Numbered from the stretch's first letter, positions 15,031-52,021 are shown. The stretch is 64,000 bases of DNA from Candidatus Hydrogenedentota bacterium (GCA_018056705.1 JAGPFE010000016.1:370-64369), one strand, 5' to 3'. Notes: generated by a model from the sequence alone, not told the origin. Program-made: numbers and translations.

Positions 15031-15063
15031 TGTCATTTCGACGAACGCAGTGAGGAGAAATCT
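15031..15063 (+). repeat. dispersed intergenic repeat, 33-bp form A (TGTCATTTCGACGAACGCAGTGAGGAGAAATCT)
   Basis: One of five copies in the window (with 15087-15113, 24555-24587, 51794-51826, 51995-52021). Confidence 0.7.
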
Positions 15064-15086
15064 TGTGCGCTTCTTGATCCGGGTTA

Positions 15087-15113
15087 AGATTTCTCGCTTC
15101 GCTCGAAATGACA
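15087..15113 (-). repeat. dispersed intergenic repeat, 27-bp form B, inverted partner of 15031-15063
   Basis: AGATTTCTCGCTTCGCTCGAAATGACA. Its termini GTCATTTCGA and GAGAAATCT are exact inverted matches to the upstream copy 23 bp away, giving a MITE/REP-like hairpin. Confidence 0.7.
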
Positions 15114-15181
15114 ACCGTAAAACCGACCACTTAAACTTGAATCCAGGCTGGATTTTCGCAGAAAAGAAAAAAATAAAATAC

Positions 15182-15210
15182 TTGTCAAGAAATTACTTCC
15201 GTGTTACAAT
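15182..15210 (+). promoter_or_regulatory. near-consensus sigma70 promoter (TTGTCA-17-TACAAT) upstream of the fapA-like gene
   Basis: TTGTCA 15182-15187, 17-nt spacer, TACAAT 15205-15210, inside an AT-rich island of a 65%-GC genome. ~70 nt upstream of start 15278. Confidence 0.45.
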
Positions 15211-15277
15211 TTACATGGCGTTCTGGGGGTGATGGCGGAACCAGCAACCTGAGTCGGAAAGGAAAGAAAGGAGTCTA

Positions 15278-16690
15278 TTGGCGGGTAATCAGCCAACAGG
15301 TGGCCCGGTTCTGACGGTACGGTTGTCTGACAACCGCGCGCGGGTGCTGGTGGATTGCTCCGCCCGCAAGGGTGAGGAGGAGACGCTGGTACTCCAGCTT
15401 CGGGAGGAGTTGGTGCGCCTCGGCCTGGGGGACACGGCATCCGAGGAAGCGGCTACCACCGCGTTCCGGGAAGCCCTGTCCCGGGTGGAAGGCACGCGGA
15501 TCTCCCTGGAATCGGTGACCGTATTGCGAGGAGAGGAACCCACGGATCCCGTGGATGCCCATCTCGAATGGACGGACAATTTTTTCGACCAGTCTTTCGT
15601 GGTGGATGAGGCCACCGGCCAGATCAATTACCGGGAGCGGGCGGGTAAACTGTCCGTCGTCACGGGGCAGAAACTGGCGGAGTTGGTGCCCGCCGTGGAG
15701 GGGACGCCGGGCCGGGACGTCTACAACAAGCCGATTCCTCCCCGAAAACCGAAAACGCTGAATCTGCGCCTGGGTCCCGGTGTCCAGTTCGATGAGACCA
15801 CCCGGACCTACACGGCGACCACGTCGGGCAGATTACGTTACAGCGGAGGGATCCTGGCCGTCGATAACGTGCTGGTGATCGACACGGTAGACCTGGCCTC
15901 CGGAAATATTCATCATCCCGGCATGCTCTCGGTCATGCAGAATATCGAGAGCGGTTGCGTGGTCGAAACGGAAGGGGATATCGAGGTCAGCGGCTACGTG
16001 GAAAATTCGGAGATTCGCTGCGGTGGCACCTTGTCCGTGCGCGGCGGGATCATCGGTGGTTGTAAGGTCCGGGCCAATGGCGATGTGCACGCGCGGTTTC
16101 TGCAGCAGGTCGAGGTCCGGGCCCTGGGTTCGGTGGTAGTCGAGCGGGAAATCGCGAACGCCCGGGTGTGGGCGCGGGGCAAGGTGAACGTGTTGCGCGG
16201 CAGAATCGTTGGAGGGGAAGTGACCGGCCACGGCGGCGTCTACATGGACCAGGCCGGCAGTGACGCGGCGGTCCTGACCGATATCATCGCCGGAGAGGAC
16301 TTTTACTGGAAGGAACAGAGCGATCCATTACACCGCGAAGCCAGGGAACTGGAAGATACCCTGGAACGGATCATGGAAAAACTGGATCCATTCCTGCACA
16401 AGGGTGTGCGGGTTCCCGATGCCGCCAAGACGGCGGTGAAACAACTCTTAGAAAAAACCGGACAGATCAAGGAACGACTCAGGGAAATCGAACAGACCCT
16501 TGAGATGCTCTGGGAAGAATCCCAGGCCATCCGGGTCAACGAGATCATCGCGCGGGTCAAAATTTGCCCCAATGCCCGGTTCCGGGTACTCGGGCTGACC
16601 CTGCGCGCTACCGAAGAGGTCCCCGGGCCGGTGAAGGTCGGTATCGCGGAAGGGGATATTCACTTCATCGAGACCAAGCTCAAGCGGTAG
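15278..16690 (+). CDS. FapA family protein (DUF342, flagellar assembly protein A-like)
   Basis: Central beta-helix-like repeats (GDIEVSGYVENSEIRCGGTLSVRGGIIGGCKVRANGDVH...) and a C-terminal coiled-coil region, as in DUF342/FapA. Confidence 0.65.
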   Translation: MAGNQPTGGPVLTVRLSDNRARVLVDCSARKGEEETLVLQLREELVRLGLGDTASEEAATTAFREALSRVEGTRISLESVTVLRGEEPTDPVDAHLEWTDNFFDQSFVVDEATGQINYRERAGKLSVVTGQKLAELVPAVEGTPGRDVYNKPIPPRKPKTLNLRLGPGVQFDETTRTYTATTSGRLRYSGGILAVDNVLVIDTVDLASGNIHHPGMLSVMQNIESGCVVETEGDIEVSGYVENSEIRCGGTLSVRGGIIGGCKVRANGDVHARFLQQVEVRALGSVVVEREIANARVWARGKVNVLRGRIVGGEVTGHGGVYMDQAGSDAAVLTDIIAGEDFYWKEQSDPLHREARELEDTLERIMEKLDPFLHKGVRVPDAAKTAVKQLLEKTGQIKERLREIEQTLEMLWEESQAIRVNEIIARVKICPNARFRVLGLTLRATEEVPGPVKVGIAEGDIHFIETKLKR

Positions 16691-17357
16691 CGTCCTGTTC
16701 GCTCGTGGGAGACATGTCCGCCAGGATTTGCTGGGCAAGGTCCCACAGTCGAGGAAATAAGGGACCGGCGGCCTGGTCATGGGGCGCGCGTAAGCGCGTT
16801 TCGGAGAGGCGAGTCAACTGCCTGGCGAAGGGGATCAGTGTCCGGGTTGCCGGGAAACGCAGGTATCGGGGGTTGAGGTCGCCAAGCCGGGTACGGTCCA
16901 GGCCGTCGCAGTCTTTCAGCAGGGCGGTCAGCACGCGGAAAGGGTGACTCCCGGGCACTTCTTTCGGCAGGCAGTGATGTTCCACGGCGAAGAAAATGGC
17001 GTTCCAGTCCTCCTCCCGGACTCCCCCCCTGGACAGCAGGTTCTGTATGGATGGCGATTGAGAGACGCGCTTAACGGCGTTGCGACCATGCTTTTCACAG
17101 TATCCGTCGTGGGTCCGTCCGATGTCGTGCAGCCATGCCGCCGCCCACAGCCGGACGCTTTCCCCCTCGTGGCCGGTCAGGCGGGTCAGCAGAAACCCGT
17201 GGATGATCACCCGGGCCACGTGGAATTCTCCGTGGATGTAACTGGGATGCTGAAACCGGTCAGGGGTCGGCGCGATCTCGTGAAGCGGCAGGGGGATGGG
17301 GTTTTCCAGTACAAGCGGCTGAGAAGGCATGGGCGGTTTCCATGGGTTAGTGGACAA
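16680..17357 (-). CDS. HD-domain phosphohydrolase
   Basis: H..LHDIGR..DG HD motif. 225 aa; the 3' end overlaps fapA by 11 bp (convergent). Confidence 0.55.
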   Translation of the reverse strand: MSTNPWKPPMPSQPLVLENPIPLPLHEIAPTPDRFQHPSYIHGEFHVARVIIHGFLLTRLTGHEGESVRLWAAAWLHDIGRTHDGYCEKHGRNAVKRVSQSPSIQNLLSRGGVREEDWNAIFFAVEHHCLPKEVPGSHPFRVLTALLKDCDGLDRTRLGDLNPRYLRFPATRTLIPFARQLTRLSETRLRAPHDQAAGPLFPRLWDLAQQILADMSPTSEQDATA

Positions 17358-17631
17358 CGGACATTCCCGGGAGCCAGAACGTGAACAGGCCGTACACCGC
17401 CAGCAGGACCAGGAAACCCGCCGCGAAAGTCCAGAGCAGCCGACGGTCTTCCCGGCGGGTGAGGTTCAGGTATCCGCCCCGCAAGCCACCCCAGACGCCG
17501 GCAAGCATCAGGATGGCGCCAATCCCGAATTCGCACAACAGCGGCAGTAATCTCGACAGGTCCACGCACGATCCTTTCCACGCGCAGGGTACAATCATTA
17601 TAACCGGTCGCGTGCCGGGAAAGGAGGTGTC

Positions 17632-19437
17632 ATGCCCAGTTTTCCTCGCTGGTTCCTGGGGATGGGGCTGGTGGTATGCCTGTTCCAGGCCTGGTCCGGA
17701 TCGACGGAATTTCCCTGCGCGCACGGCACGGGGGACGCGCTGTTCGTGCCTGATATGGCCATGGACAAGGCGGCGGACCTGTCCGGAAAGGTCAAGGCGG
17801 TGGAGCCAGTCAATACCGCTGATTATCACGAGGTGGTGGAAGCGGGATCGGGCGTGATCCTGACCTGTTACTTCAAGGACGCGGACGGTTCTGGGTTCAG
17901 AGACGCGTTATCCGGCGCGACGCGGCGGGAACGGCTGTACGACGCGGTGCGTTACATCGCGAGCGTGCTGGCTTCCGGGGAGTCCAGGACCCTGACCATC
18001 GTGGTGAATCCATCGGAAAATTCCGGGGTGTCGGGCATTCCGGTGGCCTATTGCGGTCCCGTGCTGATTCCGTCGGGGGGGATCCTTGTGCCCATGGCCC
18101 GCTATAGCCTGGTTCATGGCGTGGCTCCGGCCGGTTACGAGTCATACCCGGATATGCTGCTGACCGTGAACTGGGCCGCGCCCTGGCATGAGGAAACGTC
18201 TCCCCCGCCAGCCGACCGGCTGGACCTGGTTTCCGTCATGATTCATGAACTGACCCATGGCCTGGGGTTCAACGGGGTGTTAAGTGACACGACCCCCGCG
18301 GGAAGCGGGATATTCACGCCCTTTGATCGACTGATCGGGAAGGTAGATGGAACGCCACTGATCAACAACGCGTCCAGTTACGAGGGTGTCCCGGGCGACC
18401 TGATATCCGGAGCCCTGGTGTTCCTGGGCAGTGAAGCCGCTGCCACCTATGGCGGGTTTCCCCCCTTGTACGCGCCGGATCCATTTCTCCAGGGCACGAG
18501 CCTCCAGCATTGGGATCCCGGCCGGCTGAGCGTCCCGGACGTGGTGATGGCCCCTTCTTACCTCGTGGGTTCCTCCCTGCGGCAGTACGCGGGGTTCGAG
18601 GTTGCCGCCCTGCGCGATCTCGGTTACGCCGCGGAGAACTCAACCGGACTGTCCGCGTGCCCGCTGACAGGCATCACGATACTTGAGCCGAGGGAAAATC
18701 CGGCGATTGTTTCGGGGGATGACGTGGCGATTACCGTGACCGCGCAGCCGGCATACGCGGAAGGTAACTGTTCACTGGTGACCACCGCCACCCGGGTGGC
18801 CTATTACCTGGACGGCGCGCACATAGGGGACTCCACCCAGGACGCCTTGCGGTTTCCGCTCCTGGTCCGGGTGACAGCGGGATCCCACACGTTGCGCGCG
18901 GTGGCCACGGAGCAACTTGCCGGCAGTCTCGCGGAGACGACCACAACCTTCACGGCGTACTACAATCCGGGCGAGGATGCCCTGGCATGGACGCCGGACG
19001 GTTCCGCCATGGATTTCGGAGGGGTGGTTCGGGGTAAAACGGCCCGTCACGCGTTCCAGGTGGTGAACCGGGGGAACGTGCCCGCGGGGGTTCACGTCAC
19101 CATCGAAGGGGACGACGCGTTCACGCTGGAATCGGACCCGCCGAGCCGGGTGGAAGCGGGAGAGACGGTACCCCTGAACGTGACTTTCCGGCCCGCGGCA
19201 GCGGGAAAAACCTACCAGGCCACGCTGCGGGTCGCGGCCGATCACGGCCAGGTCCTGGAAATTTCCCTGGCGGGTCGGGGTCGCGCCTTCAGCCTGTTCC
19301 GCTGTGGCGAGGCAGGGCTGGTTGCCGGGTCTGCTTCCGGAGCTGGCGACGCGGTGATCCTGGTGCTGGCCCTGTTCGTGCTATGGCAGGGCCAGCGGCG
19401 GGGTACCGGGAAGGTAGCGACACGTCCTCACCCATGA
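17632..19437 (+). CDS. secreted zinc metalloprotease (HExxHxxGF zincin, leishmanolysin/M8-like motif)
   Basis: Signal peptide, HELTHGLGFNG zincin motif, C-terminal hydrophobic stretch plus RRG tail. AGGAGG RBS. Confidence 0.6.
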   Translation: MPSFPRWFLGMGLVVCLFQAWSGSTEFPCAHGTGDALFVPDMAMDKAADLSGKVKAVEPVNTADYHEVVEAGSGVILTCYFKDADGSGFRDALSGATRRERLYDAVRYIASVLASGESRTLTIVVNPSENSGVSGIPVAYCGPVLIPSGGILVPMARYSLVHGVAPAGYESYPDMLLTVNWAAPWHEETSPPPADRLDLVSVMIHELTHGLGFNGVLSDTTPAGSGIFTPFDRLIGKVDGTPLINNASSYEGVPGDLISGALVFLGSEAAATYGGFPPLYAPDPFLQGTSLQHWDPGRLSVPDVVMAPSYLVGSSLRQYAGFEVAALRDLGYAAENSTGLSACPLTGITILEPRENPAIVSGDDVAITVTAQPAYAEGNCSLVTTATRVAYYLDGAHIGDSTQDALRFPLLVRVTAGSHTLRAVATEQLAGSLAETTTTFTAYYNPGEDALAWTPDGSAMDFGGVVRGKTARHAFQVVNRGNVPAGVHVTIEGDDAFTLESDPPSRVEAGETVPLNVTFRPAAAGKTYQATLRVAADHGQVLEISLAGRGRAFSLFRCGEAGLVAGSASGAGDAVILVLALFVLWQGQRRGTGKVATRPHP

Positions 19438-19518
19438 GTTGAGCAGGGGAAGGATCAGGTTCGGGCAGGGGTTCCCTTTTTATATTCCGGGGAAGACTGA
19501 TAATTCTGAAAAAAGATA

Positions 19519-19570
19519 TTGCACGGAATGGAAGGCGTCTGTTATCATGTTTACCGGTCAGTAGGTAAAC
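19519..19570 (+). promoter_or_regulatory. putative promoter (TTGCAC-17-TTATCA) with overlapping palindromic operator GTTTACC-N8-GGTAAAC
   Basis: AT-rich island upstream of the acyl-CoA dehydrogenase gene. Perfect 7-bp inverted repeat at 19549-19570, immediately downstream of the putative -10. Confidence 0.35.
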
Positions 19571-19591
19571 GGAGAGCGCGCAACGAAAAGG

Positions 19592-21634
19592 ATGAAAGCC
19601 ATGGCAGACGACAAAGGCAAAGATGTGGCCATGCAGTTGGCCGAGGATGCCCGGGAAGCGGAGTGGAAATTTCCCAGTTTTACCGCTGAAATGTTCAAGG
19701 GCAATTTCCGGTGGGACCTGTTGCATCCTTTCCCCGTCCAGAGCGAAGAAGACAAGCGGATAGGCGATGAATACATCGCCAAGGTCAAAGAGGTGCTTGA
19801 GCAGTACGTCGATCCGTACGAAATCGACGCGAAAGGCCAGTATCCGCCCGAAGCCCTGGACGCGCTGGCGAAGATCGGCATTTTCGGGATGAAGATTCCC
19901 AAGGCATACGGTGGCGTGGGCCTGTCGATTACCAATTACGCCCGGGTGCTGAGCGTGGTCGGCAGTTACTGCATGAATACCGTCACGTACCTGTCCGCGC
20001 ACCAGAGTATCGGGGTGCCACAGCCGCTCAAGGAATTCGGCACGGAAGAACAGAAGAAGAAATTTTTCCCCCGGCTGGCGGCGGGTGAGATCTCCGCGTT
20101 CGCCCTCACGGAACCGGACGTGGGTTCGGATCCCGCGCGGATGGTCTGCAAGGCGGACCTGTCTGAAGACGGCAAGTACTACATCCTGAACGGCGACAAG
20201 TTGTGGACCACTAACGGGATGGATCCCAAGACCACGCTTATCGTGGTGCTGGCCCGCACGCCGGACAAGATTTCCAAGAGCGGCAAGCCCATTCCGCAGA
20301 TCACGGCGTTTATCGTGGACCTCAAGGACGGCCTGAACAAGGTGTACGATGGCGGCGACGGCAAGGAAGACGGCTTCCACCGGGTCCGTCGGTGCCAGTT
20401 CATGGGGTTGCGGGGCATCGCCAACGGCGCGCTGGTACTGCGCAACGTGAAGGTGCCGGTGGAGAACATGATCGGCAAGCCCGGCCAGGGTCTGAAGATC
20501 GCCCTTTCCACCCTGAACGTCGGTCGCCTGGGCCTGCCGGCGGCAAGCATTGGCGGCGTGAAGACCCTTGTGGAGGAATGCCAGTGGTGGATCACCAACC
20601 GCGTGCAGTGGGGGGTACCCATCGGCAAGCACCAGGCGATCGCGAAAATGGTGGCCAACATGGCCGCGCACGTGTTCGCCATGCAGAGCATCGTTTCGCT
20701 GACCTGCGCGTTCGCCGACAAGAGCAACGCGGATATCCGGCTCGAGGCCGCGGCGGCCAAGTATTTCTGCTCCGAGGTGACGTGGAAATGCCTGGACGAC
20801 TACGTGCAGGTGAAGGGTGGACGGGGTTACGAAAACGCCCTGTCCCTGTACGCCCGGGGAGAGCGGCCTTCGGCCCTGGAGATGGGACTGCGGGATGGCC
20901 GTATTGGCCGGATTTTCGAAGGCTCTTCCCAGGTGATGCACCTGATCATGGCCCGCGAAGCCATGGACACCCATTTCAGCCTGGTCATGCCGTTGCTGCA
21001 GCCTAAGCCGGGCCAGAAAGAGAGCAAGGTCGCGCTGATCATGAAGGCCCTCAAGTTCTACGCCACGTGGTACCCGGGGACCTGGATGCCGGCATCCACC
21101 AGTTTCAACGTGCGGCATCTCAACGGGGCCAACCGGGCCCACCTGGCCTACGCAGCCAAGACCTGCAAGCGCCTGGCGCGGCGGTTGTTCCACACCATGG
21201 CCAAGTATGGTCCGAAACTGGAATACGAGCAACTGATCCTGGGGAACTTCGTGGATATCGGCGTGGATATTTTCGCCATGGCGGCGTCCCTGGCTTACTG
21301 TGAAAGCCTGCTGGCCCAGAACCCGCAGGACCAGTCGATTCAGGACGTGTGCGACCTGTTCTGCCGCGAAGCCCGGAAGCGCATCGAGGACAACTTCAAG
21401 GCGGTCAAGAAGAACCACAACAGTTTCTACAAGCGGGTTACCGGCGCGCTCATGGAAGGCAAACTGAACTGGCTGCGCCGGGATATCGTGGACAACCCGA
21501 TTCCGCCCAAGTACCGCGACTGGACGAAGAACGATTACACCCACCCGGCGAAGGAAATTATGGACCGCGAGGCCGCCGCGAAGGGCGATGGCAAGACGTC
21601 CGCGCCCGCCGGAGAAAAAGCAGCGGTCAAGTAG
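19592..21634 (+). CDS. acyl-CoA dehydrogenase, long (FadE-like) form with C-terminal extension
   Basis: ACAD N-, middle and C-terminal domain motifs (GMKIPKAYGG, FALTEPDVGSDPA, GGRGYENA) plus a ~200-aa C-terminal extension. Alternative start at ATG 19601. Confidence 0.85.
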   Translation: MKAMADDKGKDVAMQLAEDAREAEWKFPSFTAEMFKGNFRWDLLHPFPVQSEEDKRIGDEYIAKVKEVLEQYVDPYEIDAKGQYPPEALDALAKIGIFGMKIPKAYGGVGLSITNYARVLSVVGSYCMNTVTYLSAHQSIGVPQPLKEFGTEEQKKKFFPRLAAGEISAFALTEPDVGSDPARMVCKADLSEDGKYYILNGDKLWTTNGMDPKTTLIVVLARTPDKISKSGKPIPQITAFIVDLKDGLNKVYDGGDGKEDGFHRVRRCQFMGLRGIANGALVLRNVKVPVENMIGKPGQGLKIALSTLNVGRLGLPAASIGGVKTLVEECQWWITNRVQWGVPIGKHQAIAKMVANMAAHVFAMQSIVSLTCAFADKSNADIRLEAAAAKYFCSEVTWKCLDDYVQVKGGRGYENALSLYARGERPSALEMGLRDGRIGRIFEGSSQVMHLIMAREAMDTHFSLVMPLLQPKPGQKESKVALIMKALKFYATWYPGTWMPASTSFNVRHLNGANRAHLAYAAKTCKRLARRLFHTMAKYGPKLEYEQLILGNFVDIGVDIFAMAASLAYCESLLAQNPQDQSIQDVCDLFCREARKRIEDNFKAVKKNHNSFYKRVTGALMEGKLNWLRRDIVDNPIPPKYRDWTKNDYTHPAKEIMDREAAAKGDGKTSAPAGEKAAVK

Positions 21635-22911: not shown

Positions 22912-22916
22912 GCGGA

Positions 22917-24134
22917 TCAGGGTTTCCCCGGGCCGAAGACCGTCCGGATGGCCTCGAGATACGCCATGCCGTTGCGGGTGTCAGGTTCCAGGTAACTGCC
23001 CTCGGTCCATTCGTTCCACGCGTTAACGGTCAGGATCCGTTGTGCCGGGGGACGATCGCGCAGCAATGCGCGGGCGGCTTCCAGGGCTTGGCGGAACAGT
23101 TCGGGGGTGTTGCCGGTGATGATGGAGGTGTAGGGATAACCGATGTTTTCGTAAGGGCCGTCCTGCGTGGTGCGTGGGGAGGGGTCCCATCCCATGCTGA
23201 CGTTGGGGAAATAGGGAACCGGCCACTGCTTTTCGAACGCGGGCCACATGGCGATCGATGCTTCCATCCAGGGCCGGTACGGGGCCGTGGGAAACGAGTC
23301 CGGGTAGACATGGTGGATCCAGCAGTAGGATGTCACGCTGTCGATTCCCAGGGCGGGCAGCAGTTCCTCCGGTTTTCGGATGGTCTGCTCGCCGGGAAGG
23401 ATCTGCACGCCCCAGACCACGGCGTTCAGGTGGAGGGGTCCCACTCCGGCGGCGTCCGCCCGTTTCCGGAAGTCGTCCAGGGCCGCCCGGGTTTTTTCCA
23501 CGCCCCCCAGTCCATCCACGAGGGTCATTAATTCGTAAATGGAAAAGTACGCCCCGCCGTTTACCCGCCAGTAGTTGGGCCGGGTCATGTACGTACGAAT
23601 CACGTGATCCGTGAGGGTTTTGAACGTCTCCGCGGATACCCGTCCGGGGTGCAACAGGGGATGCTGACGTTCGGGCCGCGCGGGGTGGATGTGGTACCAG
23701 TCATGGTTGGCCCACATCAGGGCGAACTTGAGTTTCTGGTTGTTGGGGGCTGCCAGGAAGCCCTTTTCCAGGGCAAGATGGAGAAAAGGCCCCGTGCCTT
23801 CGTGCCAGTACCAGTCGAAGATGAACACGTCGACGCCATGGTTAGCGGCGGCATCGATTCTCATGGCCATGCGCGCGGGATCGGACTCGTCATCGAACCC
23901 CCAGAGGGGGGCCTTGGGCTGATCGTGTCCTTCGAAGCGGGGCCGGGCCGCGCGGACGAGATCCCATTCCGTGAACCCTTTTCCGTAATCCCGGTCATAC
24001 GCGGGATTGGGGTGATAACTTGGGAAGTAGTACGCCGCCACGGTGTAATCGTCATTTTCCCGTGGCGTGTTGCCGGCAGGAGCCAGTCCGGGAATTCCCA
24101 CCAGCAGGATCACCAGGAGCCATCGTGCGTTCAT
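22917..24134 (-). CDS. secreted WbsX-like glycosyl hydrolase/transferase family protein (PF14307-like)
   Basis: Signal peptide. AAYYFPSYHPNPAYDRDYGKGFTEW matches the WbsX-family N-terminal signature, and a NEWTEG motif sits near the C-terminus. Confidence 0.55.
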   Translation of the reverse strand: MNARWLLVILLVGIPGLAPAGNTPRENDDYTVAAYYFPSYHPNPAYDRDYGKGFTEWDLVRAARPRFEGHDQPKAPLWGFDDESDPARMAMRIDAAANHGVDVFIFDWYWHEGTGPFLHLALEKGFLAAPNNQKLKFALMWANHDWYHIHPARPERQHPLLHPGRVSAETFKTLTDHVIRTYMTRPNYWRVNGGAYFSIYELMTLVDGLGGVEKTRAALDDFRKRADAAGVGPLHLNAVVWGVQILPGEQTIRKPEELLPALGIDSVTSYCWIHHVYPDSFPTAPYRPWMEASIAMWPAFEKQWPVPYFPNVSMGWDPSPRTTQDGPYENIGYPYTSIITGNTPELFRQALEAARALLRDRPPAQRILTVNAWNEWTEGSYLEPDTRNGMAYLEAIRTVFGPGKP

Positions 24135-24169
24135 GCCATTACCTTTCTCCGCGCGCGAGAGAGGGGAGA

Positions 24170-24352
24170 TCAGGACCTTTCACGCGCCGCGCGTATCCGG
24201 TTCAGTACGGCTTCCCGTTCGGTCGGTTGCAGGGACGCGAGCCATCGTTTCCAGCCGGGACACCAGCCCGTGTGCCAGAGCCACAGCCTGCCCAGTAGTG
24301 ACCGGGGATTCCGTTCGAACCGTTTTCGCATGGGGCAGGTGTCGCATGCCAT
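24170..24352 (-). CDS. small cysteine-rich protein (60 aa), unknown function
   Basis: GGAGAAAA RBS 6 nt upstream of ATG 24352. Sequence MACDTCPMRKRFERNPRSLLGRLWLWHTGWCPGWKRWL... carries CxxCP and WCPGW motifs. It sits 35 bp upstream of the WbsX-like gene on the same strand. Confidence 0.35.
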   Translation of the reverse strand: MACDTCPMRKRFERNPRSLLGRLWLWHTGWCPGWKRWLASLQPTEREAVLNRIRAARERS

Positions 24353-24554
24353 GGTCGTTTTCTCCATTCGGGCCCGACTACATGGTACTGGAACGACGCG
24401 GTCCAGGGAAATTCGACGGGCGGTCGGCCGTGAGTGGAACTTCAAATATGAAAGCGCGCGTTTCGAGGGATGTCCCGGGCGGACGTGGGTTCAAGGGCGA
24501 GCGATTGTGGGCGCATGGTCCTGGGGTATCCCCGGGGAGTTCGGGGGGACGAGA

Positions 24555-24587
24555 AGATTTCTCCTCACTTCGTTCGTCGAAATGACA
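24555..24587 (-). repeat. dispersed intergenic repeat, form A copy
   Basis: AGATTTCTCCTCACTTCGTTCGTCGAAATGACA is the reverse complement of the 15031 copy with 1 mismatch. It lies between the WbsX-like gene and rfbD. Confidence 0.7.
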
Positions 24588-26560: not shown

Positions 26561-27457
26561 ATGACGCGACCTGAAACGCGGCCCTGCTGGCGGGCGTCGT
26601 TACATGGGGGGCATAGCGCCGCGTATTGCGATCACGCCCGCTCTTCCCTGCGGGACCTGCTGGACGCGGCGGTGGCGCGGGACATGTGCCTGTTCGGGAT
26701 AACCGAGCACGCGCCCCGCGTGGAGCCCGGGCGGCTGTACGACGAAGAGTGCGCCATGGGCTGGACCATCGAAACCCTGGCGGCGTTATTTGCTGCTTAC
26801 GCGCGGGAAGTGGAAAGCCTCAGGGAAACCTACGCCGACCGGTTGATCGTGCTGAAGGGATTCGAGTCGGAGGTTGTGCCGGTTACCCGATGGGAAACCT
26901 TGATGCTCCAGTGGAAACGGGAGTACGGTTTCGATTACGTGGTCGGGTCGGTTCATTACGTGGCCGGCCATATCATCGACTACAAGGAGGAGCATTTCCT
27001 CCGGGCCGTGGAAGCGGCAGGCGGGATGGAACAAGCCGCGGTCCGGTATTTCCGGGCCGTGGCGGAGATGGCGGAGCGGTTACGTCCGGAAGTAGTGGGG
27101 CATTTCGACCTGATCCGGAAACAGTTCCCTGACGACGAGACCCTGTACACGCCCGCCACGCGGAGGGCAGCCCTGGAGGCCCTGGAAGCCGTTCGCGACG
27201 CGGGGTGTATCCTGGACATCAACACGGGCGGATACCGCAAGGGATTGGGACGGCCTTATCCCGCCGCGTTTATCGTTCGGGCGGCGGCAGACATGGGGAT
27301 TCCCGTGTGTCCCGGTGATGACAGCCACGCCGTGGAAGAGGTCGGGTACGGGCTGGAAGCGGCCCGGGCGTACCTTCTGGCGCATGGAATCCGAGAGGTG
27401 ACGCTGCTGTGGCCCGGAGGTAGCGGGCTGGAACGACGGAAGGTACCCCTGGCCTGA
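26561..27457 (+). CDS. PHP-family phosphatase (HisJ-type histidinol-phosphatase-like)
   Basis: LHGGHS, ITEH, GHFD and INTGG metal-ligand motifs of the PHP domain. Start codon uncertain. Confidence 0.65.
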   Translation: MTRPETRPCWRASLHGGHSAAYCDHARSSLRDLLDAAVARDMCLFGITEHAPRVEPGRLYDEECAMGWTIETLAALFAAYAREVESLRETYADRLIVLKGFESEVVPVTRWETLMLQWKREYGFDYVVGSVHYVAGHIIDYKEEHFLRAVEAAGGMEQAAVRYFRAVAEMAERLRPEVVGHFDLIRKQFPDDETLYTPATRRAALEALEAVRDAGCILDINTGGYRKGLGRPYPAAFIVRAAADMGIPVCPGDDSHAVEEVGYGLEAARAYLLAHGIREVTLLWPGGSGLERRKVPLA

Positions 27458-45302: not shown

Positions 45303-47617
45303 ACGCGAAACATCTGGTTGGCATGCTGGTGTGGGTGCTGGTCGCGGCAGGCGTGTCGGTCGCCCAGGACTACGAGGGCCGGAACGTGGACGAGGTCCGG
45401 TTCAGGGGCCTGGAACGGGTGAGTGAACAGGCCGTGCTGTCTAAAATGGAGCTCAAGCCTGGCGCGCCGTTCAGCCGCGGGGCGGTGACCCGGGATATCC
45501 GCCGGCTGTACGAACTCAATTACTTCGACACCGTCAACATCGGGGTAACCGAGGAAGCCGGAAAGCTCGTGCTCCAGGTGGATGTGAAGGAGAAACGGGT
45601 GGTCGAAGAAGTGCGGATCATCGGTAACCGCAAGATCAAGGACCGTGCCATCCGGGCTGTCCTTTCCATGCGCGAAGGGGATTCGTTCCTGCCCGAGTCC
45701 TATGACCAGGAACGGCAGGCCATCCTGAACCTGTACGAAAGCAAGGGGTTCGCCAATACCATCGTGGACGCCGTGGCCGAAAACATCGGGGCTTCGCGGG
45801 TGCGCCTGATCTATACCATCACGGAAGGGAAAAAGGCCCGGATCCGGAGCATTAACATCGAAGGCAACCAGGCCCTGTCGGATCGCCGGTTGCGCAAGTC
45901 CATGAAAACGAAAAAGGCCTGGTGGTTCCTGGGTGGCAAGTACGAGGAGGAAAAATTCGAAGCCGACCTGGAAACCATCGTGAACGAGTATGGCAACATT
46001 GGTCGACTGGAAGCCCAAGTGACCAAGACCGACCTGGTGTACACCCCCAATGGCAAGGGCATCAACGTGACCATCTTCGTGGAAGAAGGCCCGGAATACA
46101 CCATGGACAGCCTGGAAGTCGCCGGGAACAAAGTGTATGACACCGATGAACTGATGGACCAGGTGAAGGTGAAGCCCGGTGCGATCCACAACAAGGGCCA
46201 GGTCGCGAAGGACATCGAAAACCTGCAGAAAACCTACCAGGACAGCGGGTACGTGGATGCCGCCGTTACCCCCCAGGTGGTGCTTGACCGGGATCGCAAG
46301 GTCACGCGTGTCACGTACCGCGTCGAGGAAGGCGACCTCAAGTACCTGCATGAAATCCGCGTCACGGGCAACTCCGTGACCAAGGACGAGATCATCCGGC
46401 GCCAGATGCTGGTGATCCCCGGGGACCGCTACGACGGCGAAGCCGTGGAAAAAAGCCGCCAACGGATTCAGAATACCCAGTTCTTCGACACGGTCCGCGT
46501 GACCCTCGAAGATCCCTCCGCGGGATCGGTCAGCAAGGACCTCTTTACCGACCTGAACGTGGACGTGGAGGAAGGTAAAACCGGTACGTTCAACTTCGGT
46601 GGCGGCTACAGCACCGAAGATGGCGTCGGCGTTTACACAGAACTGCGGCTGAACAACTTCGACATCGGCAACTGGCCAAAGTTTTCCGGTGGCGGGCAAC
46701 AGTTGCGCCTGCGGATCAACACCGCTACCCGGCGCGACAATTACGCCATCAGTTTCACCGAGCCCCAGTTCCTGGGGTATCCCATCTCCTTTGGCGTGGA
46801 CGCGTACCGCGAAACCTACGAGGTCCGTGGCGGGGCCAACTACACCGAGGATTCCACAGGCGGCCAGTTGCGACTGGGTAAGAACCTGTCTCCTTACGTG
46901 TTTACCCAGGTGGGGTTCCGTGCCCAGAACACCGATATCAGCGATCTGCCCACCTTCATTAACCGGGAAATCAAGCGGCAGGAAGGCGATTCCACCACGC
47001 TGAGTACCACGTGGCGCATCGAACGCAACACGCTGGACAGTCGCATTGACGCTACTTCCGGCGCGGTACATGCGCTGACCGTGGAAGTGGCCGGGTTTGG
47101 CGGGGACCACAACTTTATCAAGGCTGAACATGACAGCACCTGGTATAAATCTCTCGGTGAAAAGAAGAAGTGGGTGTTGTCCCTGCGGACCCGTGAGGGA
47201 GTGATGACCGAGTACGGTGATTCCGATTACGTGCCGTTGCAGGACCGGTTCTACGCTGGTGGATCGAATACCGTGCGCGGTTACCGGAACCGGGATATCG
47301 GCCCCAAGGTCCGCGAATACTGGTTCTGGGGAGATACCTTCTCCGTGGGGGGTAACGCCCGACTGCTGGGAACCGTCGAAGCCAAGTACAAGATCACGGA
47401 TATCCTCCGCGTGTACGCCTTCATGGACGCGGGCGGTGTCTGGGCGGACACCGGCGAGTTCGACTTCGGCGACATGCGGTACAGCGCGGGGGTCGGTCTC
47501 GGCTTCAACGTGCCCATGCTCGGGCCTATTCGAGTCGATTACGGCTATCCCCTCAACCCGGATGATGACCAGAGTTCCAGCGGTCGCCTGCACCTGGCCA
47601 CCGGGTACAAGTTCTGA
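45299..47617 (+). CDS. bamA: outer membrane protein assembly factor BamA
   Basis: Signal peptide, five POTRA-like repeats, C-terminal Omp85 beta-barrel ending GYKF. Start is TTG 45299 (overlapping the clpC stop) or ATG 45323. Confidence 0.9.
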   Translation: MNAKHLVGMLVWVLVAAGVSVAQDYEGRNVDEVRFRGLERVSEQAVLSKMELKPGAPFSRGAVTRDIRRLYELNYFDTVNIGVTEEAGKLVLQVDVKEKRVVEEVRIIGNRKIKDRAIRAVLSMREGDSFLPESYDQERQAILNLYESKGFANTIVDAVAENIGASRVRLIYTITEGKKARIRSINIEGNQALSDRRLRKSMKTKKAWWFLGGKYEEEKFEADLETIVNEYGNIGRLEAQVTKTDLVYTPNGKGINVTIFVEEGPEYTMDSLEVAGNKVYDTDELMDQVKVKPGAIHNKGQVAKDIENLQKTYQDSGYVDAAVTPQVVLDRDRKVTRVTYRVEEGDLKYLHEIRVTGNSVTKDEIIRRQMLVIPGDRYDGEAVEKSRQRIQNTQFFDTVRVTLEDPSAGSVSKDLFTDLNVDVEEGKTGTFNFGGGYSTEDGVGVYTELRLNNFDIGNWPKFSGGGQQLRLRINTATRRDNYAISFTEPQFLGYPISFGVDAYRETYEVRGGANYTEDSTGGQLRLGKNLSPYVFTQVGFRAQNTDISDLPTFINREIKRQEGDSTTLSTTWRIERNTLDSRIDATSGAVHALTVEVAGFGGDHNFIKAEHDSTWYKSLGEKKKWVLSLRTREGVMTEYGDSDYVPLQDRFYAGGSNTVRGYRNRDIGPKVREYWFWGDTFSVGGNARLLGTVEAKYKITDILRVYAFMDAGGVWADTGEFDFGDMRYSAGVGLGFNVPMLGPIRVDYGYPLNPDDDQSSSGRLHLATGYKF

Positions 47618-47819
47618 TTTCCATCCGCGACGGGGCTTTGACCGGAGGAATACTCCGGATTCATTCCCGTTGTTGTGAAGCCATCCATGGCCGGATCCGG
47701 TTCATTCGGGTCCGGTCATCTGGTTATCTGCCACCTGTTTCGCGGGAACACACCTGGTCAGCGGTTGTGGATGCGCTTCGGTTACAACTTTTCGTGTATT
47801 TCAAAGTAAAATTATATAC

Positions 47820-47848
47820 TTGAAAAATAGTAAAAAATTCTATATACT
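47820..47848 (+). promoter_or_regulatory. sigma70-like promoter TTGAAA-17-TATACT
   Basis: Sits in an AT-rich island carrying a direct repeat of TATATACT. ~20 nt upstream of ATG 47868. Confidence 0.4.
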
Positions 47849-47867
47849 GTCGGGTGGAGACGAAACC

Positions 47868-48497
47868 ATGCTTGGCGAACTGGAAACCCTGATCAGGAAA
47901 CTGGAAAACCGGGAAGACACCTGGGTGGCCCGGAGGGATGCCGCTGAAACCCTGGGAAAAGTAATTCATGCCGCCCTGGCCGCCCTGGTAGCCCATCGGA
48001 CTGATCCCGACATGGACGTGCAACTGCAGGTGGAGCGATCGCTGGAGGGGCTCCGGGCGATCGCCCTGCCGCCCACCGTGGGTACCCGGGAATTCACGCT
48101 GCGCGAACTGGCGTACGCCTGCGAAAAACGCCCGGTCCGGGTGGTGGAACCCTGGGAGAATGGTTTTGCCGTGACCGTGAAACTCAGCGAGGACCGTTCT
48201 CAGCGCGTGATGGTGACCAGTTACGATACCCGCGAAAACCGTCTGGTCCGTATTTACACGCCCTGCGGGAGCGCTTCACCCGAAATGTATGAATGGGCCC
48301 TGAAAGCGAACGGGCGCATGACCATGGGCTTTTTCGCCCTGGTACGGACCCGTTCTGGCGATCGGCAACTGGTACTGCTGCACACCATTCCCCGCAAGGA
48401 TGCCACGCCCCAGCTGGTCAAGACGGCCGTGAAGCATATCGCGGCGCTTGGGGACGAAATGGAACGGCATATTCACGGGGGAGAGGATAAACTCTGA
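47868..48497 (+). CDS. hypothetical protein with N-terminal HEAT-like repeats and a YbjN-like C-terminal domain
   Basis: ARRDAAETLGKV is a HEAT_PBS-like repeat. The ORF-track start at 47820 is actually the promoter; ATG 47868 follows GGTGGAGA. Confidence 0.45.
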   Translation: MLGELETLIRKLENREDTWVARRDAAETLGKVIHAALAALVAHRTDPDMDVQLQVERSLEGLRAIALPPTVGTREFTLRELAYACEKRPVRVVEPWENGFAVTVKLSEDRSQRVMVTSYDTRENRLVRIYTPCGSASPEMYEWALKANGRMTMGFFALVRTRSGDRQLVLLHTIPRKDATPQLVKTAVKHIAALGDEMERHIHGGEDKL

Positions 48498-48498
48498 A

Positions 48499-49056
48499 TC
48501 ACGGGGTCGGGGCCCCACCACCGCGCTTCCGGTGCCGGCCGGGCGGCATGGCGAGACCGTATGCGCGCATTTTCCGCCAGAGGGTGTTTCGGCCGATGCC
48601 GAGGCGCCGGGCCGCGTGGCTTCGGTTGCCGCCGCAGGCCTTGAGTGCGGCCAGAATGGCTTCCCGTTCCAGGTGACGCAGAGGGGAGGGTGTCGCGTCG
48701 GGGAGGGGTACGGCCGATCCGCTGGCGGCGGGAGCGTCCGGCGTGGCGGGGGGCAAGGCATTTCCCGAGGCCGCGGCCCGGGATACCATCAGTTCGAGTT
48801 CGCCCGCCTGCAGGGGCAACAGCACGTAACCGAACGCTCCCGCCCGCATGACGGTTACGGCTTCGGCCACGTCGGCCACCCCGGCAAACATGAGCACGGG
48901 ACGATGGCGGTCCATGAGTGCCCGCGCGCGCCGGGGCGACTGCGCCAGGAGCACGTCACCACCATGGTCCTGTACGTGGTGTCCCGCCCGCTCCAGCAGC
49001 AGCCGGACGGTTTCCCGCAGCGATGGATCGTCGATGTACAGTTCAACGTTGGCCAC
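48499..49056 (-). CDS. Fis-family transcriptional regulator with receiver-like N-terminal domain
   Basis: C-terminal HTH_8 (LKACGGNRSHAARRLGIGRNTLWRKMRAYGL). GTG start with GGAGA RBS. The N-terminal domain resembles a degenerate receiver. Confidence 0.5.
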   Translation of the reverse strand: MANVELYIDDPSLRETVRLLLERAGHHVQDHGGDVLLAQSPRRARALMDRHRPVLMFAGVADVAEAVTVMRAGAFGYVLLPLQAGELELMVSRAAASGNALPPATPDAPAASGSAVPLPDATPSPLRHLEREAILAALKACGGNRSHAARRLGIGRNTLWRKMRAYGLAMPPGRHRKRGGGAPTP

Positions 49057-49080
49057 GTTTTGTCTCCAGATGCCCCGGTT

Positions 49081-51453
49081 TCATGAAAAGACGTCTTCCC
49101 GACCCGTGCCGTGGACCAGTACCACGTCCGGTCCGGCCGGCATCAGGGACGCCTGGTGGCGCGCCCATTCCGTAAAGGTTTCTTCCGTCGGCAGTTCGAA
49201 GCCCAGCATGACCAGGGTCGCGTCTGCCGACTCCCGATGAATGATCTCCGCGATGGGATCGCGGGACACGATTACCGTGAAGTCGACGTCCATGCGGGCG
49301 CGGTGTATCAGGGATTCGAGATCCGCCTGGGCCTCCGGCACTTCCGCGGTATCGGAAACCACCCGCAGGACCCGGATTCGGGACCGCTTCCATTCCCAGT
49401 TCCAGGTGAGCAGGTGGGCCAGCAGCAGCATCAGCGCACCATTTTTCAGTCCCCGCCACCAGATATCTATCCGCTTGGGGATTTCCGGCCGGATTTCCGA
49501 GCGTCCCGGGCGCAGCAGCAGGACGCCCATGTCCAGGCCGCGCGCGAACCGGAGAATACCCGGGCGCAGGGATCCCATGCCCGGTTGGCGGGTCGACCAG
49601 CCAAACAGGACCAGGTTGGGCGCTGCCGGCGTGGAAGCCATGGTCTGCATGACGGCCCGAATGCCAGAATCCAGGTCCGGGGCTGCCATTACGATCGGAA
49701 AAGCGGGCACGCGCCGCTCACGGCAGAACTGCCTCAACTGGTTTTCGGCGTTTCCGCGGCGTTCTTGCAGATGATCCGGGTCGCCCTCGAGTACGCGGAC
49801 AAGGTAGACCAGTCCCGCCCCGGCCTCGAACCAGCAGCCGTAGGAGACCAGGTGTAACCTCGATTCGGGGTATCCCGAGAACACCAGGCAGACCGGACGC
49901 CAGTTTCGAGGCGCGTCAGGACGCTCCGCCAGGGCCAGAAGACTGGTCCGCAGGTTGCGGTAATACAGTCCCCGGCGCGCGTCGCCATAGACCGTCTCCA
50001 GCCCCCGGCTCCGCAGGTACCGGTGCAGCAGCACGAGGATAACCACTACCACGGCGGTACCCCACGGGTTGATCAGGACGCTCGCTCCGGCGCACAGCAG
50101 GCATCCTGCCAGGGCGGTGCCCCAGTGAAAGAACCGGAAGCGAGGACGGAACGAAGGACTTTTCGCGTAAGATTCCACAAAGGCCGCAAGGTTCAACAGA
50201 AAATACGTGGAGAGGAAAAACTGCGTAAGCAGTCCGGCCACCTGGTTCAGGGACTCACCAACCCGTGATAAGGATGCCCAGGCCAGGATACTTCCCGCGA
50301 TGATCCCGGTAAGCAGCGTGGCCCGTCGGGGTTCGTCATTGGCGTGACCCTTGGCGAAGTACCGCAAAGACGGCAGGAGATCATCCCGGGCTACTGCCTG
50401 CAGCACCCTGGGCGCGGACAGGTGCGTGCCCAGCGCGCTGGAGATACTGGCCGCGATGATCCCCACGCTGACGGTCCAGCGCAGGTACGCGGGCAGGACA
50501 TCATGGAAACAGCGGTAGGGCTCTTCGGTCAGGGTGGTTCCCGGAAACGCCCCGGCGAACAGGCAGATCGTGAGCAGGTAGACGGCCGCGGCCGAACCGA
50601 TGGCGAACAACATTCCCCTGGGTATGGAACGTGCTGGATCCGCGAGGTCACCTGACATGTTGAGTCCGACAAGGAATCCCGTCGCGGCCGGAAAGAGTAT
50701 GGCGAAATAAGTCCAGAAATGGCGCCCATCATAAGACGCTGGCGGCATGAGGTTTGACAAAAAAATATCCGGAGTGAACCGGAACAGGGCGCCGCCCAGG
50801 AAGAACAGGATGGATCCTGCGAGGAGGCCGAAAATGACGTATTGTCCCCGGATGGACCAGTCCGCGCCCAGCCACGTAATAAACAATACCGCGATGCCCG
50901 TGCCGAGGGTGATTTCCCTGAACCAGGGAGCCAGGCCAGGAAAATCGAGCACCAGGGCCTCCGTGAACCCTAAAATGTAGAAGACCACGGAAACGGACTG
51001 GGCAAGGTAAAGGGTAAGCCCAATCGCCCCTCCGGACTCCGGTCCCAGCACCCGGGAGATCAGAAAGTAGGCCCCGCCACCACGTATTTCCATGTTGGTG
51101 ACCACCGCGCAAACGGAGAGTATGGTCAGCAGAGCGATGCTGATGGCGATGATCATCATGATCAGCGTGAGGCCAAGACCTGCCATCCCCGTCACGTAGT
51201 TCATGCGCAGGTACAGCACCACGCCCAGTATACTCAGAAGGCAGGGTACATATACACCTGAAAAGGTGCCGAAACGATAGCCGCCAGCCTGTGATCTCTG
51301 CCCGCTTTCGCGCACGGGCGTCCTCCTTTGGATCGTGTGAGTCCTGGACAGCGGTATCCATGATACCATAAGGGTGTCCGTCCCGATTGTCCCGGTGGAA
51401 GGTTGGGCGATCGAACCATGGAACCGGCTTATGCTGATGGACTGGGTAAACAT
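49081..51453 (-). CDS. APC-superfamily transporter of the SLC12 (cation-chloride cotransporter)-like type with cytoplasmic C-terminal domain
   Basis: ~12 TM helices with FGTFSGVYVPCLLSILGV and GGAYFLISR motifs, followed by a ~330-aa soluble C-terminal domain. Alternative start at 51369. Confidence 0.65.
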   Translation of the reverse strand: MFTQSISISRFHGSIAQPSTGTIGTDTLMVSWIPLSRTHTIQRRTPVRESGQRSQAGGYRFGTFSGVYVPCLLSILGVVLYLRMNYVTGMAGLGLTLIMMIIAISIALLTILSVCAVVTNMEIRGGGAYFLISRVLGPESGGAIGLTLYLAQSVSVVFYILGFTEALVLDFPGLAPWFREITLGTGIAVLFITWLGADWSIRGQYVIFGLLAGSILFFLGGALFRFTPDIFLSNLMPPASYDGRHFWTYFAILFPAATGFLVGLNMSGDLADPARSIPRGMLFAIGSAAAVYLLTICLFAGAFPGTTLTEEPYRCFHDVLPAYLRWTVSVGIIAASISSALGTHLSAPRVLQAVARDDLLPSLRYFAKGHANDEPRRATLLTGIIAGSILAWASLSRVGESLNQVAGLLTQFFLSTYFLLNLAAFVESYAKSPSFRPRFRFFHWGTALAGCLLCAGASVLINPWGTAVVVVILVLLHRYLRSRGLETVYGDARRGLYYRNLRTSLLALAERPDAPRNWRPVCLVFSGYPESRLHLVSYGCWFEAGAGLVYLVRVLEGDPDHLQERRGNAENQLRQFCRERRVPAFPIVMAAPDLDSGIRAVMQTMASTPAAPNLVLFGWSTRQPGMGSLRPGILRFARGLDMGVLLLRPGRSEIRPEIPKRIDIWWRGLKNGALMLLLAHLLTWNWEWKRSRIRVLRVVSDTAEVPEAQADLESLIHRARMDVDFTVIVSRDPIAEIIHRESADATLVMLGFELPTEETFTEWARHQASLMPAGPDVVLVHGTGREDVFS

Positions 51454-51793
51454 AGACGCCGTCTTCCAATTTATCGTGGCTCACAAGTGGTGGCTGGCCG
51501 CGCTGGTGCCCTTCATGATCGCCGTAGTAGTGCTCAAGGCGCGCGGTTGATGCTGTGGCATATGGTTCGAGCGGGAAGACGATCCCCGGTGGCCTGTCCT
51601 GGTGGTCGCGGGGGCGAAGCGCGCACGCAAGTTTAAGTCGCGCTGCGCGGTTTTGCTGGATTTCGTGCGGGCTGCATGGAGGGTAGGCGTTCGGGTGCCT
51701 GGTTGGGGTGTCTTGAGAAGTTCTATCTATCGGAACGTTGCGCTATCAATTGAATCGGTATCATTGTCATGTGGTGAGGCATGTATCCTGTCA

Positions 51794-51826
51794 GGATTTC
51801 TCCTCACTTCGTGCGTCGCAATGACA
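51794..51826 (-). repeat. dispersed intergenic repeat, form A copy
   Basis: GGATTTCTCCTCACTTCGTGCGTCGCAATGACA. Confidence 0.7.
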
Positions 51827-51994
51827 ACGCATTGTCCGCGCTACCCGCCATGTTCCTTTCATCCCTTATCAATCGTGGCGTGGTATTTGAACCAGTGCTG
51901 TCCTTTCAACCGGCACATTGTCCTTTCGACCCGCGCACTGTCCTTTTGCCACACATTGTCATGTTTGCTCATGCATTGTCATTCGCCCATACAT

Positions 51995-52021
51995 TGTCAT
52001 TTCGAGCGCAGCGAGAAATCT
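51995..52021 (+). repeat. dispersed intergenic repeat, form B copy (inverted partner of 51794-51826)
   Basis: TGTCATTTCGAGCGCAGCGAGAAATCT. The ~170-bp spacer between the pair is a decayed tandem array of CATTGTC(A/C)TTTCG-like units. Confidence 0.7.

Follow-up and report, generated by a model that had tools for sequence, protein, structure and literature searches.

Dispersed hairpin repeats in a Candidatus Hydrogenedentota genome: a probable G·A-mismatch subtype of the Ssn-related motif

Repeat copies and their surroundings in the window

The stretch of DNA analyzed here, referred to as the window, comprises 64,000 nt of a metagenome-assembled genome (MAG) of Candidatus Hydrogenedentota from anaerobic digesters (GCA_018056705.1 JAGPFE010000016.1:370-64369) and contains a family of short repeats, present in a longer form A and a shorter form B, which probably belong to the hairpins that accompany the small GIY-YIG nucleases of the Ssn family. 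An initial annotation made from the sequence had listed five copies, and all five were found at the coordinates it gave, in three intergenic regions. Each of these regions lies between divergent genes, namely a yggT-like gene and fapA (site 1), wbsX and rmlD (site 2), and an SLC12 permease gene and tRNA-Arg (site 3). The copies, numbered below by position, and the features composed of them are as follows, with half copies defined as the 5' tag and 5' arm of a hairpin without the 3' arm.

15031-15063, plus strand: form A hairpin copy, TGTCATTTCGACGAACGCAGTGAGGAGAAATCT; outer stem of 5 bp, ATTTC/GAAAT; two tandem G·A layers split by a C-G pair, inner stem AC/GT, loop GCA
15087-15113, minus strand: form B hairpin copy, reading TGTCATTTCGAGCGAAGCGAGAAATCT on that strand; outer stem and one CGAG/CGAG block (tandem G·A), mini-hairpin GCGAAGC
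15031-15113, no strand: convergent (tail-to-tail) A/B doublet, the standard unit of the source species; strain-polymorphic
24555-24587, minus strand: solitary form A copy, loop GAA; present in 6 of 6 strains examined
51794-51826, minus strand: decayed form A copy, reading TGTCATTGCGACGCACGAAGTGAGGAGAAATCC on that strand; one base pair of the outer stem and one of the G·A layers broken
51898-51994, plus strand: degenerate array of 5' half copies in tandem (CAYTGTCMTTT..., periods 20 and 18), running into copy 5 and exemplifying the half copies of the family
51995-52021, plus strand: form B copy with a GCA loop; tRNA-Arg lies 100 nt downstream

The gapped pattern GTCATTTCGA-N(4-24)-GAGAAATC matched the window exactly four times, compared to 0.00 matches expected from 100 shuffles, and the remaining copy (51794-51826) is a diverged form A that is 94% identical to copy 3 (24555-24587). 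The proposed dispersed intergenic repeat family is genuine and its units form hairpins. The orientations and both inverted pairs were also as described, the gaps being 23 nt (15063 to 15087) and 168 nt (51826 to 51995). The latter distance, given earlier as about 170 bp, does not represent a neutral spacer but is largely occupied by the array of half copies, for which the tandem repeat program TRF reported periods of 20 and 18 at 51898-52001. The termini had been regarded as exact inverted matches; only ATTTC/GAAAT (5 bp) are complementary, and the adjoining GA/GA form G·A mismatches. Of the two pairs only the first can fold as a long hairpin, with -33 to -35 kcal/mol and a z of about -2.6. 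The family further accounts for the spurious ISPHFVRRND-type open reading frames (ORFs) in the window.

Hairpin anatomy and covariation

Each copy constitutes a single hairpin on one strand, which reads T-GTC, AT-YYY, G·A A·G, NC-GNA-GN, RRR-AT and C-T. On the GTCAT strand form B consists of T-GTC, a 5-bp stem (AT+YYY), G·A/A·G, a 2-bp stem with a GNA triloop, the mirror half and C-T; form A has one additional C-G pair and a second G·A layer. Both forms contain known stable mini-hairpin motifs: form B holds GCGNAGC (GCGAAGC or GCGCAGC) closed by a CGAG/CGAG block and form A holds C-GNA-G together with two G·A layers. In single-stranded DNA (ssDNA), d(GCGNAGC) mini-hairpins and CGAG blocks are unusually stable by nuclear magnetic resonance and melting (PMC13037366, PMC3201870, PMC10085684), although these were described as physico-chemical motifs and not as a genetic element, and no link between them and Ssn-type repeats was reported in the literature examined. 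Nearest-neighbour folding, which does not capture G·A/GNA stability, gave unremarkable energies for single units (z about 0).

The structure is supported by covariation. The pattern GTCATNNNGAGCGNAGCGANNNATC, in which three outer-stem positions were left free, matched at least 120 viral contigs of IMG/VR, and the three free stem positions were all complementary in 144 of 151 matches; at least nine stem variants occurred among the matches listed, and the loop centre could be any base. A version that kept the TTC stem of the window and left the inner part free was present in GTDB species genomes of at least 12 phyla, and the inner stem covaried among the matches listed there (GC/GC, AC/GT, CC/GG and CT/AG). 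Among 116 distinct cores 96.3% of cells were paired and all five variable stem pairs exhibited double-sided changes, which amounted to 164 cells vs 46±12 in shuffles, with 0 of 500 shuffles reaching the score. The covariation score was 0.544 in the proposed register compared to at most 0.19 in slid registers. Stem changes were restricted to transitions, so that pyrimidines are maintained in the 5' arm and purines in the 3' arm.

The bases flanking the palindrome were near-invariant. All five window copies carry the TGTCAT tag as well as a C just after the palindrome (TGTC...ATC), and in the 116 unbiased form-B cores the tag positions G, T and C were retained in 115, 116 and 114 cases, respectively, and the downstream C in 116 of 116.

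Copy number and strain differences in the source species

Loci of the source species were recognized by a tetranucleotide signature matching that of the window at r of at least 0.95, as found for the window's own chunks. Seventeen metagenomic loci carried this signature and four of them were confirmed as the same Hydrogenedentota species through 90%-identity protein clusters containing the same Hydrogenedentota MAG accession series. The initial annotation had made its case depend on further copies elsewhere in the genome, and 42 distinct copies (24 form A and 18 form B) were found at these 17 further loci, mostly as convergent A/B doublets 20-27 nt apart. Six of the doublets, each in a different context, have one shared 27-nt spacer, and the same 31-mer is present in 17 of the 24 form A copies. 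The 31-nt sequence of copy 3 is the commonest form A at these loci.

Sites 2 and 3 were fixed in the strains seen. Site 1 differed among strains that are about 99.5% identical and was found as one doublet, as two tandem units of 59 nt plus doublet, or as a doublet into which 112 nt are inserted and which adjoins CRISPR-like repeats, with the homology between strains ending at the edges of the element. The earlier suggestion of a recombination hotspot is borne out by this site, which represents a rearrangement-prone spot that is structurally polymorphic between strains.

The CRISPR-like direct repeats (CCCCACCCGTTYAGCGGGAACAC, 35-nt spacer) abut the site-1 hairpin cluster on its upstream side in two strains (L121:14-100; same in L122), where the window strain carries the yggT-like gene. 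The window itself contains a single match to this type of repeat, with 3 mismatches, at 47730-47751. At site 2, an ORF fragment on the plus strand (24108-24519) matches only the N-terminal 40% of an AlkZ-like DNA glycosylase domain (E 1.8e-5, just under the Pfam cutoff), and its frame continues through copy 3 and stops directly after it. This fragment may be a gene remnant truncated at the hairpin element.

Association with Ssn nucleases

A Pfam scan of 129 ORFs adjoining hairpins of the family returned unrelated housekeeping genes, except for two small GIY-YIG proteins, which provided the lead to the Ssn connection. A gene encoding a GIY-YIG protein of about 100 aa is bracketed by form-A-like hairpins in a Mucilaginibacter MAG, and in a Flavobacteriales MAG the region directly upstream of a GIY-YIG gene contains a doublet together with a half copy and another partial copy. 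Chenal et al. (2025, Nat Commun, PMC11893778) described the NTS hairpins of Neisseria (CGTCATTCCCGCGMAVGCGGGAATCYRG), and related hairpins termed Ssn-related motifs (SRMs), on the flanks of the genes of SsnA, a GIY-YIG nuclease with a single domain (cd10448 type), often on both sides. SsnA binds the hairpin as ssDNA only and on one strand only, cuts a few nt upstream and does not bind RNA; strand-specific binding and cleavage, without activity on double-stranded DNA (dsDNA) or RNA, were reported for the Neisseria and Wolbachia homologues, and both sequence and structure matter for recognition (PMC11893778). NTS cleavage is controlled by the three bases preceding the palindrome, and no base matters more for binding than the C that directly follows it (PMC11893778). 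The near-invariant tag and downstream C of the present family occupy the same positions as those controlling NTS cleavage and binding.

The association was recovered when loci were collected by the repeat. The exact 31-nt form A alone matched at least 118 metagenomic loci with a contig G+C content (GC) of 0.30-0.70, none of those listed being the window locus, and a hidden Markov model of Ssn detected five Ssn genes among the 118 fetched (L297, L365, L268, L375 and L340), each flanked by hairpins identical or near-identical to window forms A and B. One viral contig (L254) carries an Ssn gene with GTCATTCTGAGCGAAGCGAAGAATC on both sides, whereas other viral Ssn genes have canonical NTS-type hairpins. 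G·A-type hairpins also flank ssn in the isolate Dissulfurimicrobium hydrothermale (L379), in a Nitrosomonas MAG and on three further contigs. In all, related G·A-type hairpins accompany Ssn homologues in six organisms besides the five metagenomic contigs and D. hydrothermale. In D. hydrothermale, whose ssn gene is located at about 1.80 Mb of CP085041, the copy adjoining ssn is identical to window copy 5, including the 3' TTCCCC, and is followed by a half-copy array; the 31-nt sequence of window copy 3 occurs 1.3 kb upstream of the same gene, within a split restriction-modification (R-M) ORF.

The Ssn homologues gave Pfam GIY-YIG matches of 1e-15 to 1e-17. The Ssn of the A/B-flanked contig L297 is 47% identical to an Ssn with canonical NTS-type flanks and has at least 7,900 homologues, the top ones of which (72-84% identical) come from Desulfobacterota, Cyanobacteria, Chloroflexota, Nitrosomonas, Ignavibacteriales and others. 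All five members of this clade for which the context was fetched were flanked by G·A-type hairpins. A sequence search of the PDB returned no relative and PADLOC no defence family.

The ssn genes were typically situated on contigs of about 1 kb bounded by repeats, which are usually too short for binning, and this contig size also applies to most Ssn homologues in the protein database. Two independent short-read assemblies (L248 and L249) start exactly inside copy 5 (window position 51997). Because the repeats break assemblies, ssn genes are likely under-represented in MAGs, and their absence from a MAG would be uninformative and possibly artifactual.

Distribution and arrangement of the family

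The hosts of the G·A-type family are mainly Bacteroidota, Chloroflexota, Desulfobacterota, Nitrospirota, Cyanobacteria and candidate phyla. The repeats had been expected to be species-specific, an expectation contradicted by the spread of the same motif across genomes from at least 12 phyla and across metagenomes of GC 0.30-0.70. The motif was not found in cultured-phage genomes, and plasmids carrying it belong to two cyanobacterial genera only (Planktothrix and Calothrix). On the Planktothrix agardhii plasmid AP017994, locus L250, two doublets with half-copy arrays (6435-6507 and 8091-8163) are located inside an annotated hypothetical coding sequence of 1,546 aa (5132-9772), which is either mis-annotated or tolerates the elements inside it.

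By a crude ORF call, about 80% of the hairpin matches fell outside long ORFs. Family hairpins were located between convergent genes in 62 cases and between divergent genes in 28, and no preference for the transcribed strand was apparent (80 sense vs 85 antisense). Neighbouring hairpins were arranged tail-to-tail in 53 of 94 pairs, with gaps mostly of 12-40 nt. Half copies were distributed in a polar manner, as 129 of 651 full hairpins had same-strand 5' half copies within 90 nt upstream and only 31 of 651 had them downstream, at a typical spacing of 18-27 nt. The text of the Ssn paper holds no mention of such polar half-copy arrays (PMC11893778). Further arrays upstream of full hairpins were noted at L250:6389-6456 and 8048-8112, L379:9826-9950 and 10340-10450, and L380:1906-1990.

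Relationship to known repeat systems

Full-text literature searches with the literal repeat sequences returned only unrelated primer coincidences. The family had been thought possibly undescribed, but as a kind it belongs with the NTS/SRM hairpins (PMC11893778). We consider it probable, with a probability of roughly 0.8, that the five elements represent a G·A-mismatch subtype of NTS-like SRM hairpins, that is, of the repeats that accompany small GIY-YIG Ssn nucleases and are bound and cut by them in tested cases. The likeness to NTS/SRM extends to an inverted repeat of 20-50 nt that forms a hairpin on one strand and is present in many copies; to the oriented 5' (H)GTC-AT tag, hairpin and following ATC-Y, in which the bases conserved here are the NTS cleavage and binding bases; to a dispersed, mostly intergenic and often clustered occurrence; to the repeat-ssn-repeat architecture; and to homologous Ssn proteins, which are about 40-47% identical to homologues with canonical NTS-type flanks. 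Unlike the NTS stem, which is a perfect GC-rich palindrome, the stem here is interrupted by tandem G·A mismatches in one or two layers and includes a mini-hairpin of 2 bp with a GNA loop. Forms A and B, which are cognate, moreover travel together as convergent doublets, half copies of the 5' part often form polar arrays, and the hosts are mainly Bacteroidota, Chloroflexota and other phyla, whereas the description of NTS/SRM emphasized proteobacterial symbionts.

Several observations weigh against this assignment. The published SRM search pattern, HGTCWYN(0-2)YYVSBRHN(0-5)WNVSBRGN(0-2)RNCYNB, matched 0 of the 5 window copies and had no match within 400 nt of 10 Ssn genes with G·A-type flanks, while it matched the canonical-type flanks at four of five other Ssn loci tested; it is an operational pattern derived from 29 genomes and not a biochemical definition. 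No Ssn/GIY-YIG ORF was detected by hmmsearch among the six-frame ORFs of the 64-kb window or in the fetched loci of the same species, and the copies in the source genome may be orphans without an active nuclease. The claimed hairpin stability is based on literature about G·A/GNA motifs, given the unremarkable folding energies of single units. Finally, mobility is something we infer, as no pair of filled and empty sites was found among 448 element clusters.

The only match of the SRM pattern in the window (27295-27323, minus strand) lies inside a PHP-domain gene, forms no hairpin and is a chance match; together with the missed copies it illustrates the false positives and false negatives of the pattern here. 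Three Ssn homologues on long contigs were considered as the source genome's own ssn and rejected, as they belong to other organisms.

Alternative explanations

The absence of ssn from the window, the decay of copy 4 and the strain differences at site 1, which recombination between repeats could explain, would all fit inert relics of an Ssn cassette since lost, whose copies act as dispersed homology promoting recombination, duplication and assembly breaks. In line with this, no Ssn homologue was reported for 19% of the genomes that carry over 200 SRMs (PMC11893778). Against relics stand forms A and B kept near-identical at many loci of the source species, the shared 31-mer in most of its form A copies and the near-invariant tag, which point to recent spread or ongoing constraint, and the apparent absence of ssn from a MAG can be an artifact of its short, repeat-bounded contigs. 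We consider orphan relics a live partial alternative for the source genome itself, though an unlikely one. An action at the RNA level, as terminators, mRNA-stabilizing 3' hairpins or a small structured RNA, would be compatible with G·U-compatible intermediates in the covariation, with the stability of tandem G·A and GNA loops in RNA too and with the first doublet, which folds well as RNA. It is nevertheless very unlikely. The initial annotation had suggested terminators or mRNA stabilizers; a T run is absent, terminator-like sites overlap 0 copies and all three window sites lie upstream of divergent genes, which speaks against the former, and the latter does not fit the even distribution over sense and antisense strands of flanking genes. 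SsnA, as noted, does not bind RNA (PMC11893778). An Rfam scan of the window at gathering score returned tRNAs only, and even at E up to 10 there was no match to the repeats and just two chance C/D-snoRNA matches. Hammerhead, K-turn and C/D-box readings of the CUGA/GA motifs were rejected by inspection for want of a CUGAUGA core, a 3-nt bulge and a strand bias. The lack of a transcription-strand preference, taken together with the stable ssDNA motifs, argues for an action at the DNA level.

At that level there is a parallel with the REP/BIME/REPIN elements mobilized by RAYT, an IS200/IS605-like Y1 HUH enzyme, which share with the present family imperfect palindromes of 20-40 nt, a hairpin unit with an unpaired 5' tag, short-spacer inverted doublets, high copy number, an intergenic bias, a single-copy nuclease gene flanked by its own repeats and a presumed ssDNA-hairpin action (PMC3116915, PMC2817692). 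The excess between convergent over divergent genes is likewise REP-like. The tag is TGTC, unlike the GTAG/CGTC of REP, the associated enzyme is a GIY-YIG nuclease of about 95 aa and not a Y1 HUH transposase, and the same G·A-type sequence is common to several phyla, unlike REPs, which are largely species-specific. A phmmer search with E. coli RayT among 27,533 ORFs of about 380 loci, about 360 of which had been fetched by the hairpin, gave two weak matches without flanking hairpins. In contrast, eight Ssn ORFs were detected, and seven of these lie within about 250 nt of hairpins. No Y1 transposase family recurred among the 129 neighbouring ORFs. The earlier label REP-like is apt for the short-spacer inverted doublets, which are typical of the family, and fails for membership, since the tag differs and no RAYT is flanked by the hairpins; classical REP/REPIN elements are less likely still than an RNA-level role. 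The two weak RayT-like ORFs are located on viral contigs (L035:1170-1817 and L053:1410-2165) at 3.8 kb and 0.6 kb from the nearest hairpin. Least likely of all are miniature inverted-repeat transposable elements (MITEs) that descend from an insertion sequence bounded by terminal inverted repeats. The short, dispersed and intergenic nature of the copies and their two inverted pairs had suggested such elements, but the unit is a single hairpin of 27-33 nt, solitary copies exist, the spacers of pairs vary (20-27 nt, 112 nt and 168 nt), there are neither terminal inverted repeats around a body nor flanking target duplications, and no transposase family recurs in the neighbouring ORFs.

Two further repeat families invite comparison. 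The Neisseria dRS3 element is the palindromic core of NTS (PMC11893778), so that dRS3 is an older name for a portion of this kind of element. It has been tied to recombination and sequence diversity of neighbouring genes, comparable to the polymorphism at site 1, but dRS3 is a perfect palindrome (ATTCCC-N8-GGGAAT) restricted to Neisseria. The cyanobacterial SDRs, attributed to Elhai et al. in 2008, are reportedly dispersed hairpin repeats of 21-27 nt with compensatory changes, often in nested or tandem-heptamer contexts. Compared by description only, they resemble the present family as short dispersed hairpins with compensatory changes, and the motif studied here occurs on Planktothrix and Calothrix plasmids. 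SDRs were reported to be confined to Nostocaceae (PMC5861425).

Proposed mode of action and significance

If the five elements belong to the Ssn-related hairpins as proposed, the likely course of events can be outlined, with cleavage, its consequence in vivo and the mode of spread being what we infer. Once the TGTCAT...ATCT strand is made single-stranded by replication, repair, conjugation or transformation, it would fold into a compact hairpin, in which a 5-bp stem leads to sheared G·A pairs in one or two tandem layers (CGAG block) and then to a C-GNA-G mini-hairpin. A cognate Ssn acting in the way known for SsnA of Neisseria would bind this hairpin and the following C and introduce a nick into the ssDNA a few nt to the 5' side of the GTC tag, and the complementary strand, dsDNA and RNA would not be substrates. 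The elements occur as convergent A/B doublets and in other organisms as doublet-ssn-doublet cassettes, and they would multiply and rearrange inside genomes and cross phyla with the nuclease gene. The window copies would then be nuclease-less satellites in three divergent promoter regions, one of them marking a strain-variable junction. The window copies are ordinary members of a family that is very widespread and is best classed as a G·A-mismatch variant, structurally distinct, of the Ssn-related hairpins, with REP-like behaviour and a GIY-YIG ssDNA nuclease as its predicted partner.

A more far-reaching possibility, to which we give only tentative credence, is that the G·A-type hairpins, together with the Ssn clade that accompanies them, make up a mobile element that is based on ssDNA and propagates itself, with the nuclease of about 95 aa in the role of RAYT/TnpA. 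A/B doublets would then be non-autonomous derivatives and half-copy arrays footprints of cut-and-copy chemistry, and the element would spread between phyla and lodge preferentially in R-M loci. The idea is suggested by the identical 31-mers across GC 0.30-0.70, by Ssn proteins 72-84% identical across phyla, by the shared-spacer doublets in different contexts, by a 434-bp unit of doublet and ssn present once or twice in two strains and by the position of four of five long-context ssn loci at R-M systems, the last two of which are described below. Behaviour like that of insertion sequences has been raised for Ssn systems as a hypothesis only (PMC11893778).

For the window, the proposed assignment gives the repeats an annotation, in which the partner enzyme, the active strand and the cut position are all predicted, and the repeats account for assembly breaks and strain differences at the window sites. 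More generally, the published SRM definition appears to miss a large pan-bacterial subclass with sheared G·A pairs and GNA mini-hairpins, and Ssn homologues flanked by G·A-type hairpins would otherwise count as being without SRM, as was reported for 29% of homologues (PMC11893778). Since Ssn enzymes are under development as site-specific ssDNA cutters, a clade recognizing a compact, stable non-Watson-Crick hairpin would be a distinct specificity class, for which D. hydrothermale represents a cultured source. The R-M-locus position of the cassettes and the polar half-copy arrays provide leads on the role of Ssn outside Neisseria.

Restriction-modification loci and other observations

Ssn cassettes with G·A-type hairpins were located inside or beside R-M loci at four of the five long-context loci examined. 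The settings of ssn comprised a type I arrangement (hsdS-(PIN/PhD)-ssn-hsdR), a BglII R-M pair and a position between Mod and Res of a type III-like system; a further setting consisted of split MmeI/Eco57I-like ORFs, one of them containing a form A copy. On a Planktothrix plasmid a hairpin lies under an MmeI annotation. The R-M-associated ssn loci are listed below.

L380:1-4291
L379:7339-13964
L385:676-3411
L386:328-6153 and L387:762-5424

Comparison of two close contigs (L386:2472-3417 vs L387:2906-3417) revealed one extra 434-bp unit, consisting of a hairpin doublet and ssn, in one of them. On both contigs it lies between the same methyltransferase and helicase (Mod/Res) genes, in one copy or in two, which constitutes a copy-number polymorphism of the whole cassette.

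Elsewhere in the window, positions 57334-57862 contain direct repeats with a period of 210 bp, in which 163-nt copies are 84% identical and a 36-nt core occurs three times; these repeats are unrelated to the hairpin family.

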